Source: a virus (Duplodnaviria > Heunggongvirae > Uroviricota > Caudoviricetes). From it: a stretch of DNA of 64,000 bases. The notes beneath the pieces were generated by a model that saw nothing but the letters and a program-made list of their open reading frames with translations, was not told the origin of the DNA and made no database searches. Position 1 is the stretch's first letter, and every line of letters starts with the position of its first letter. Below, one piece after another: positions 24,146 to 24,220 of the stretch. Location of the stretch: IMG/VR virus record IMGVR_UViG_3300002835_005179, positions 1 to 64,000 of that record, one strand, 5' to 3'. The translations under genes and the position numbers were made by a program.

Positions 24146-24220
24146 GCGCTTGTAGCATAATGGTAATGTAGAAGATTCTAAACCTTCGAGATGAGAGTTC
24201 GATTCTCTCCAAGCGCACCA
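24146..24220 (+). tRNA. tRNA with anticodon CUA (amber-reading), includes encoded CCA
   Basis: Manual cloverleaf: acceptor GCGCTTG/CAAGCGC, D-arm GCAT-AATGGTA-ATGT, anticodon stem GAAGA/CCTTC (one A.C mismatch) with loop TTCTAAA, variable GAGAT, T-arm GAGAG-TTCGATT-CTCTC, discriminator A, then CCA. Conserved T8, A14, GG18-19, U33, R37 and the TTCGA T-loop are all present. Confidence 0.75.

Follow-up and report, generated by a model that had tools for sequence, protein, structure and literature searches.

A tRNA gene with anticodon CUA and the small gene that follows it in an uncultured T4-like myophage (34% G+C) probably constitute a two-part cassette, in which the tRNA gates the translation of its neighbor. 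The neighboring gene carries an in-frame TAG at its third codon, and this codon is the most informative fact on the purpose of the tRNA. The original prediction, made from the letters of the DNA, had recognized a suppressor-type tRNA behind rIIB and had proposed that it either extends TAG-terminated proteins by a few residues or indicates a reassignment of the stop codon in the host-phage system. The sound CUA tRNA and the short extensions were retained in our analysis and the reassignment was not; the in-frame TAG of the adjacent gene had been missed. The features needed below are listed with their positions in the window, i.e., the whole 64-kb stretch of DNA that was analyzed:

23376 to 24137, plus strand: rIIB homologue of 253 aa, the upstream neighbor of the tRNA (open reading frame, and Pfam match PF26926, Phage_T4_rIIB, on an identical protein)
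24146 to 24220, plus strand: tRNA gene with anticodon CUA (amber suppressor type) and encoded CCA at 24218-24220 (ARAGORN, Rfam RF00005)
24227 to 24233, plus strand: Shine-Dalgarno-like AAGAGGA, with 4 nt between it and the ATG at 24238 (read from the sequence)
24238 to 24492, plus strand: putative amber-gated gene, ATG ACA TAG AAG..., 84 codons and TAA (frame, family alignment, and AlphaFold model)
24244 to 24246, plus strand: in-frame TAG at codon 3 of the gated gene, presumably the codon decoded by the tRNA (read from the sequence)
24480 to 24513, plus strand: intrinsic-terminator-like hairpin AACGGGAGAG-TAAA-ATCTCCCGTT followed by TCATTTTTTT (hairpin search)

Identity and Structure of the tRNA Gene

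Exactly one tRNA was called by ARAGORN in the window, at 24146 to 24220 on the plus strand with anticodon cta; this was the run that had been proposed as a check. The Rfam model RF00005 matched positions 24146 to 24217 over its full length (64 bits against a gathering score of 29, E=1.4e-11), and the cloverleaf with anticodon CUA and encoded CCA was thus upheld by both tools. The acceptor stem GCGCTTG/CAAGCGC opens with G1-C72 and is followed by discriminator A73, the D arm reads GCAT-AATGGTA-ATGT and the T arm GAGAG-TTCGATT-CTCTC; the D-loop GG and the T-loop TTCGA by which tRNAs are recognized are both present. Within the anticodon arm (GAAGA-TTCTAAA-CCTTC) the anticodon 5'-CUA-3' occupies positions 34-36 of the 7-nt loop TTCTAAA, with U33 and a purine at position 37. 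The 5-nt variable loop (GAGAT) and the A.C mismatch of the anticodon stem (A31.C39), both pointed out before, can be read in the sequence, and this last stem pair is the sole non-standard pair flagged in the Rfam alignment of the window tRNA. The tRNA is structurally sound and of the amber-suppressor type. The label “tRNA-Pyl” assigned by ARAGORN reflects the CUA anticodon only.

The same tRNA was found letter for letter in six more independently assembled metagenome contigs (L008-L013, 99.5-100% identical to the window), and since it is identical in seven independent assemblies including the window it is not an assembly artefact. In the more diverged contig L016 the tRNA is 93% identical and its stem changes keep the pairing, the two stem substitutions only switching between G-C and G.U; A31.C39 is kept despite five other substitutions.

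The Putative Amber-Gated Gene

The ATG at 24238 lies 18 bases after the tRNA, and the DNA from the tRNA end onward reads CCA AATTAAAAGAGGAATAT ATG ACA TAG AAG ACT AAA ATT AAG TGT GAA TAT TTG ATT TTT CAC. Shine-Dalgarno-like motifs are equally spaced from the ATG in all diverged homologues of the gene. Its product is a conserved small all-beta protein, FHFNKKHLEDPSIPMW...TKETPDNPHTKGSIK. The mechanical list of open reading frames places the start of this gene at TTG 24271, the first alternative start, and public gene calls give 73 or 57 residues; the open frame and its conservation nevertheless extend upstream as far as the TAG at 24244-24246.

The arrangement of tRNA and gene in L016 (rIIB 85% identical) is as in the window, including the in-frame TAG. 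Over the eight codons after the TAG the two sequences differ by four substitutions, three synonymous and one non-synonymous, and the stretch between the TAG and TTG 24271 appears to be conserved as protein. The AlphaFold (AF2) model of the gated protein has a mean pLDDT of 90, and the residues next to the TAG on its 3' side make up the first beta strand; a protein start further downstream is therefore hardly possible. No match to the gated protein was obtained in Pfam, PHROG, NCBIfam, PADLOC or PDB, and a structure search with the model returned no significant structural neighbor. A scan of the 64-kb window for a Shine-Dalgarno motif followed by ATG-x-TAG found no second gene of this pattern.

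Transcription Unit and Genomic Surroundings

The tRNA starts 8 nt past the stop codon of the 253-aa reading frame with PF26926, in agreement with the earlier placement directly after rIIB. The promoter scan detected no sigma-70-like promoter either between rIIB and the tRNA or between the tRNA and the gated gene. At the end of the unit, a terminator-like hairpin of nine pairs with a T-run behind it overlaps the gated gene's stop codon; the hairpin of L016 is identical, and its T-run is one T shorter. After the hairpin a late-promoter motif, TATAAATA, is found at 24513-24520. The motif is not enriched across the window (10 copies found vs. 8.5 expected), and this copy is therefore only suggestive.

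The large terminase of the window is less than 50% identical to any GenBank phage protein, and the region from rIIB to the tRNA has no close DNA-level relative among GenBank phages. GenBank matches of the tRNA alone were uninformative, and no exact match to the anticodon arm was found in IMG/VR. When bacterial genomes were searched for a host, only four contigs of metagenome-assembled genomes (MAGs) matched, and these are probably mis-binned phage.

Elsewhere in the window, a two-piece (permuted) tmRNA of the alphaproteobacterial type lies at 37828-38207 on the minus strand (Rfam alpha_tmRNA 92.9 bits, tmRNA_permuted 99.9 bits); it was not called by ARAGORN, and its tag frame, read from the alignment, is ANTNVLVMSAAA*. 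The same phage carries a ClpP gene (13324-13938, minus strand). Anti-defence-type cargo is located at 16906-19276 (minus strand), 25752-27926 (plus strand) and 30673-31584 (plus strand) and comprises NAMPT along with a PRPP-synthetase-like gene, a cytidylyltransferase/NMNAT-like domain in a 724-residue DUF5824 protein (NAD salvage), and an Acb1-family gene. Two long simple-repeat stretches at 20450-21120 (plus strand) and 46900-47280 (minus strand), which translate as GLGLGL.../SGSWSW..., are about 86-88% similar on opposite strands, and the length of one copy differs between assemblies.

Conservation of the tRNA-Gene Pair

IMG/VR was searched with the gated protein family, which yielded at least 339 relatives, of which 80 loci were kept. 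The TAG precedes the conserved FHFNK motif by 9-13 codons in 73 of the 75 kept loci where the motif could be located. After removal of duplicates and addition of the window and other loci, 59 distinct loci remained, and 56 of these have an ATG, one to five codons and then TAG (codon 2-6). The early stop in the 56 loci is always TAG, never TAA or TGA, while the codon before it varies.

The presence of the tRNA near the IMG/VR loci was determined by combining ARAGORN, a pattern search and Rfam. A CUA tRNA was detected no more than 2.5 kb upstream on the same strand in at least 42 of 50 distinct IMG/VR gene loci, often 50-200 nt away, and all but two of these carry the TAG; the other eight of the 50 have no detectable CUA tRNA within the 2.5 kb fetched. 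Conversely, in loci found by the tRNA pattern that also hold a homologue of the gated gene, the gene is always downstream on the same strand. In relatives with rIIB 74-85% identical the CUA tRNA is located just after rIIB or one or two genes later, and where a relative has no tRNA beside rIIB, the gated gene is missing there as well. The pair adjoins rIIB in some phages and sits inside tRNA clusters in others. Downstream of one gated-gene locus (L188), in a tRNA-rich region, a GOLLD RNA was identified (RF02032, 172 bits, 4756-5213, plus strand, cut by the contig end).

Four of the five TAG-less lineages examined (L043-type, L213, L229, and L251) keep a CUA tRNA 0.13-3 kb away but show no evident client for it, and in L043 and L251 no second client gene was found directly after the tRNA. 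The retention of the tRNA near TAG-less homologues may point to a further role of the tRNA, or to a functional link of tRNA and protein in addition to the gate.

Members of the gated family are systematically mis-called in protein databases, either with the TAG as Q (“MSQIEY...”) or cut to a downstream start (“MVFHFNKK”, “MTCKEVV”); examples are L158-L237, L241, proteins P0141 and P0143, and others. Glutamine as the residue inserted at the TAG, as the homologues beginning M-S-Q-I-E-Y... would suggest, was considered and rejected: one such DNA reads ATG TCA TAG ATT GAG and does not translate to the stored protein, and the Q is accounted for by automatic code-15 (TAG-to-Q) translation. The true TAG-less homologues, with an ATG at about this position, do not point to a particular inserted residue either. 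In many IMG/VR lineages the family protein has about 195 residues with an acidic tail.

Cultured and GenBank Examples

The cassette is also carried by the T4-like Rhizobium phage RHph_I1_18 (MN988519.1, 171 kb), in which the gated gene is unannotated. The gene reads SD-ATG AGT GAG TTC ATG TAG AAC GAA TCG TGC... (M-S-E-F-M-TAG-) and continues into the conserved protein; the annotated “tRNA-Pyl(cta)” of this phage lies 12 nt after the stop codon of the gene. A scan of the whole genome for an ATG with Shine-Dalgarno motif followed by TAG in unannotated gaps returned a single candidate, the gated gene. RHph_I1_18 has about 24 tRNAs, and genes for tRNA maintenance surround the cassette, namely a GatB/YqeY-like protein, a CCA-adding enzyme, a Thg1-like guanylyltransferase, an RNA ligase and a polynucleotide kinase (tRNA-related genes at record positions 3218-3670 and 166079-169984; L243, L246). 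An SsrA note is also found in its tRNA cluster.

The only other GenBank phages matched by the gated domain were the jumbo rhizobiophages Atu_ph07 (L239 2207-2728) and Phosso (L240 2195-2725), where the domain forms the C-terminus of a protein of 173 to 176 residues. A phosphatase gene follows it in both, and in Phosso it is located two genes downstream of an annotated peptidyl-tRNA hydrolase.

The Family of CUA tRNAs

The tRNA family consisted of 48 distinct CUA tRNAs called by ARAGORN and chosen by their cta anticodon (e.g., window 24146-24220, L020 1337-1410, L116 59-132). All 48 encode the CCA end, 41 have A as discriminator and 7 have G, and the anticodon loop is YUCUAAA in 45 (CUCUAAA in 32, UUCUAAA in 13). 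In an alignment of 37 diverse members, compensatory double changes occur at 17 of the 19 consensus stem pairs. By these features of its family and by the ARAGORN and Rfam matches, the window tRNA is genuine and under selection.

Positions 31-39 do not form a standard pair in 26 of the 48 CUA tRNAs (C.A in 15, A.C in 7), compared with 28 of 811 other tRNAs of the same phage loci, a comparison in which the CUA sequences are not phylogenetically independent. Positions 27-43 are mismatched in 22 of the 48, and the RNAalifold consensus of the anticodon stem contains only three (central) pairs. Since 31-39 is non-standard in so many members and the mismatch is kept in L016, A31.C39 of the window is a family trait and not a sign of decay. 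Unpaired positions of the anticodon stem have been linked with better reading of stop codons (PMC13092985), and a 27-43 mismatch combined with a CUA anticodon improved UAG readthrough in Escherichia coli according to the account of Komine and Inokuchi (1990) given in PMC13092985. The weak stem could also mean low decoding efficiency. As a further possibility, the unusual stem may render decoding by the CUA tRNA tuned or semi-orthogonal, with one particular amino acid being inserted.

The original prediction had taken the discriminator A and G1-C72 to fit a Lys- or Gln-derived species, but phage Met, Arg and Lys tRNAs all have this acceptor pattern. An ancestry from tRNA-Lys, proposed on the basis of a D arm in common with phage tRNA-Lys(CUU), was dropped, the acceptor pattern being equally common in Met and Arg tRNAs. 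The nearest-neighbor test of CUA tRNA ancestry is biased by how the loci were fetched. The CUA tRNA of RHph_I1_18 resembles neither the Lys nor the Gln tRNAs of that phage.

TAG as an Ordinary Terminator

Stop codons were counted for 82 genes based on open reading frames, covering 93% of the window: 56 end with TAA (68%), 14 with TGA and 12 with TAG (15%). The TAG terminators named by the original prediction are real (1893..3482, 12247..13056, and 41237..41626 all end TAG), and its expectation that an active suppressor would lengthen such proteins slightly is consistent with the next in-frame stop codons, which would add 4-17 residues to the 12 window genes. Its second suggestion, reassignment of TAG, found no such agreement: besides the use of TAG as a terminator, no gene of the window is split by TAG, as no pair of sizeable same-frame reading frames parted by TAG proved to be one. 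In the complete genome of RHph_I1_18 the terminators are TGA in 126, TAA in 107 and TAG in 30 of 263 genes (11%), and neither a second TAG-interrupted gene nor a recoded block was detected there. Recoded phages are recognized by many genes with in-frame TAG, above all structural and lysis genes, and by scarcity or absence of TAG as a terminator; neither was observed in the window or in RHph_I1_18. There is no sign of TAG reassignment in the window.

Conserved readthrough extensions of the TAG-ended genes were also considered and rejected, because the products of the Acb1-family and Glyco_hydro_19 genes stop at the same position as their orthologues in a diverged relative; the Acb1-family gene ends ...KRKMDL[K/N]* in both the window and L016.

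Putative Mechanism

Directly observed are the CUA tRNA, the TAG in frame at codon 3 and the conservation of their linkage; we infer from these that the tRNA would be expressed, charged and active in suppression, and that this would serve a regulatory purpose. The tRNA would be transcribed together with the gated gene, either as part of the rIIA-rIIB unit or close behind it, and would be cut out of the transcript with its CCA end already encoded, and the hairpin terminator would end the unit of tRNA and gated gene. A host aminoacyl-tRNA synthetase would charge the CUA tRNA, which would then compete with release factor 1 at UAG. Ribosomes starting at ATG 24238 would meet the UAG at codon 3, and the 84-residue protein would be made only if the CUA tRNA decodes it; without decoding, a dipeptide would be released. 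The output of gated protein would hence follow the level and activity of the suppressor tRNA relative to termination, which would amount to a translational gate or sensor. As a side effect, C-terminal extensions of 4-17 residues may arise on TAG-ended proteins of the phage as well as of the host.

A more far-reaching and doubtful idea is that the tRNA and the small beta protein are a self-contained mobile translational switch of T4-like phages, whose UAG reads the balance between suppressor tRNA and release factor 1 or reports host attack on tRNAs, and whose protein itself acts on translation, tRNA or termination. With such a switch, the persistent linkage of the tRNA in TAG-less variants and the position of the Phosso domain near a peptidyl-tRNA hydrolase would both be accounted for.

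Alternative Explanations

An improbable alternative to the two-part cassette is that the tRNA is a general suppressor with no dedicated client, which “detoxifies” nonsense mutations or is a first step to TAG recoding, and that the neighboring TAG is incidental. Standard-code phages with suppressor tRNAs are documented (bioRxiv 10.1101/2021.08.26.457843; Atu_ph07), such a role has been proposed for standard-code relatives of recoded gut phages, and the CUA tRNA is still found near TAG-less homologues. An incidental TAG is, however, at odds with its occurrence at the same early place of the same neighbor gene in 56 of 59 loci and with the joint presence or absence of the two features; in addition, TAG is undepleted as a terminator (15% in the window, 11% in RHph_I1_18), and no other TAG-containing genes were found in either.

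Less probable still is that ATG-x-TAG is a leader minigene of two to five codons with a true stop, that the protein is made by reinitiation at ATT or a near-cognate start, and that the tRNA is unrelated. ATT, a rare start codon, follows the TAG in 43 of 56 loci, and the TAG-less homologues start M-I-E/K... with their ATG at about the position of the TAG. Yet in the other 13 of the 56 loci, among them the window (AAG) and RHph_I1_18 (AAC), the TAG is followed by a non-initiator codon, the stop is exclusively TAG though TAA dominates these genomes, and the close physical association with a CUA tRNA would have no explanation.

It is very improbable that the tRNA is a non-translational tRNA-like element, be it a pseudogene in decay, a decoy that draws off anticodon nucleases of the host or a signal for RNase P processing. 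Degeneration could be read from the A31.C39 mismatch and from the 26 of 48 family members without a 31-39 pair, but none of the universal tRNA features has been lost, the CCA end is present, covariation is seen in the stems, and the CUA anticodon is kept with U33 and A37 across the 48 distinct sequences; the mismatch itself is conserved in the family and survives the five other substitutions of L016, and unpaired stem positions are reported to favor the reading of stop codons (PMC13092985). Equally improbable is a phage partly recoded (TAG as an amino acid, code 15) in a part of its genome outside the window, for although only 64 kb of the genome are visible and phages often recode only some of their late and lysis genes (bioRxiv 10.1101/2021.08.26.457843), the terminase, portal, capsid and Glyco_hydro_19 (lysozyme-type) genes of the window use the standard code, some ending with TAG, and the complete RHph_I1_18 genome with the same cassette shows no recoded block.

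Significance and Comparison With Known Systems

A full-text search of the literature found reports on recoding and on suppressor tRNAs of standard-code phages and no description of the cassette, which is widespread in related phages yet unannotated; the recoding systems of phages are its closest relatives. Phage suppressor tRNAs have so far been discussed almost only for large-scale recoding in gut phages. The cassette is a minimal and apparently widespread form, with one tRNA, one amber codon and one neighbor gene in standard-code T4-like environmental phages. If the two-part reading is true, it would be an “amber gate” of natural origin on a single gene, much like synthetic amber-suppression switches, and would give a reason why some standard-code phages keep suppressor tRNAs. 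It would also bring to light a conserved protein family whose members annotation pipelines shorten, miss or translate in the wrong code, and offer natural CUA tRNAs with weakened anticodon stems for the study of efficient UAG decoding. With RHph_I1_18 on Rhizobium phaseoli there is a cultured carrier, and the idea is thus directly testable.

In the recoded gut phages (crAss-like, Lak; TAG = Gln, code 15) a phage CUA tRNA is likewise predicted to decode UAG in a standard-code host, and an in-frame stop likewise makes translation conditional on the phage's own tRNA (bioRxiv 10.1101/2021.08.26.457843; PMC7886860; PMC10879173). The cassette differs from these in being confined to one gene with one TAG at codon 3, coupled to the tRNA, while TAG terminators occur at normal frequency. 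Its phages are T4-like, come from fresh water and soil and have alphaproteobacterial hosts where known, whereas the recoded phages are from gut Bacteroidota and Firmicutes. The prfB gene for release factor 2 also has an early in-frame stop acting as a gate set by termination vs. alternative decoding (PMC12421855), but there the stop is a UGA at codon 26 that is passed by a +1 frameshift and senses the gene's own product, in contrast to a UAG at codon 3 and a dedicated suppressor tRNA.

The pyrrolysine and selenocysteine systems also employ a special tRNA that reads a stop codon in specific client genes, and both ARAGORN and GenBank label these phage CUA tRNAs “tRNA-Pyl”. tRNA-Pyl has a 3-nt variable loop, a 6-bp anticodon stem and a small D loop without GG; the window tRNA, unlike it, has a 5-nt variable loop, a 5-position anticodon stem, a D loop AATGGTA with GG and a T-loop TTCGA. 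No PylS-like or synthetase Pfam domain was found in the four genes downstream of the cassette (24540-29990) or in the precomputed Pfam annotations of the called genes about 10 kb to either side.

The CUA family resembles tRNAs with “unpinned” or shortened (4-bp) anticodon stems in that it often lacks the 31-39 pair, the 27-43 pair or both. The described cases concern either tRNA-Trp(CCA), a near-cognate reader of UGA, or the uppermost pair of the stem, whereas the window tRNA has a fully cognate anticodon and is unpaired at the bottom pair 31-39. Finally, E. coli supE and supF and T4 psu1+ likewise place CUA on an ordinary elongator scaffold in a U33, A37-A38 context; these are mutant alleles selected in the laboratory, in contrast to the tRNA of the cassette, which is natural and has persisted, together with a matching amber codon, in many diverged phage lineages.
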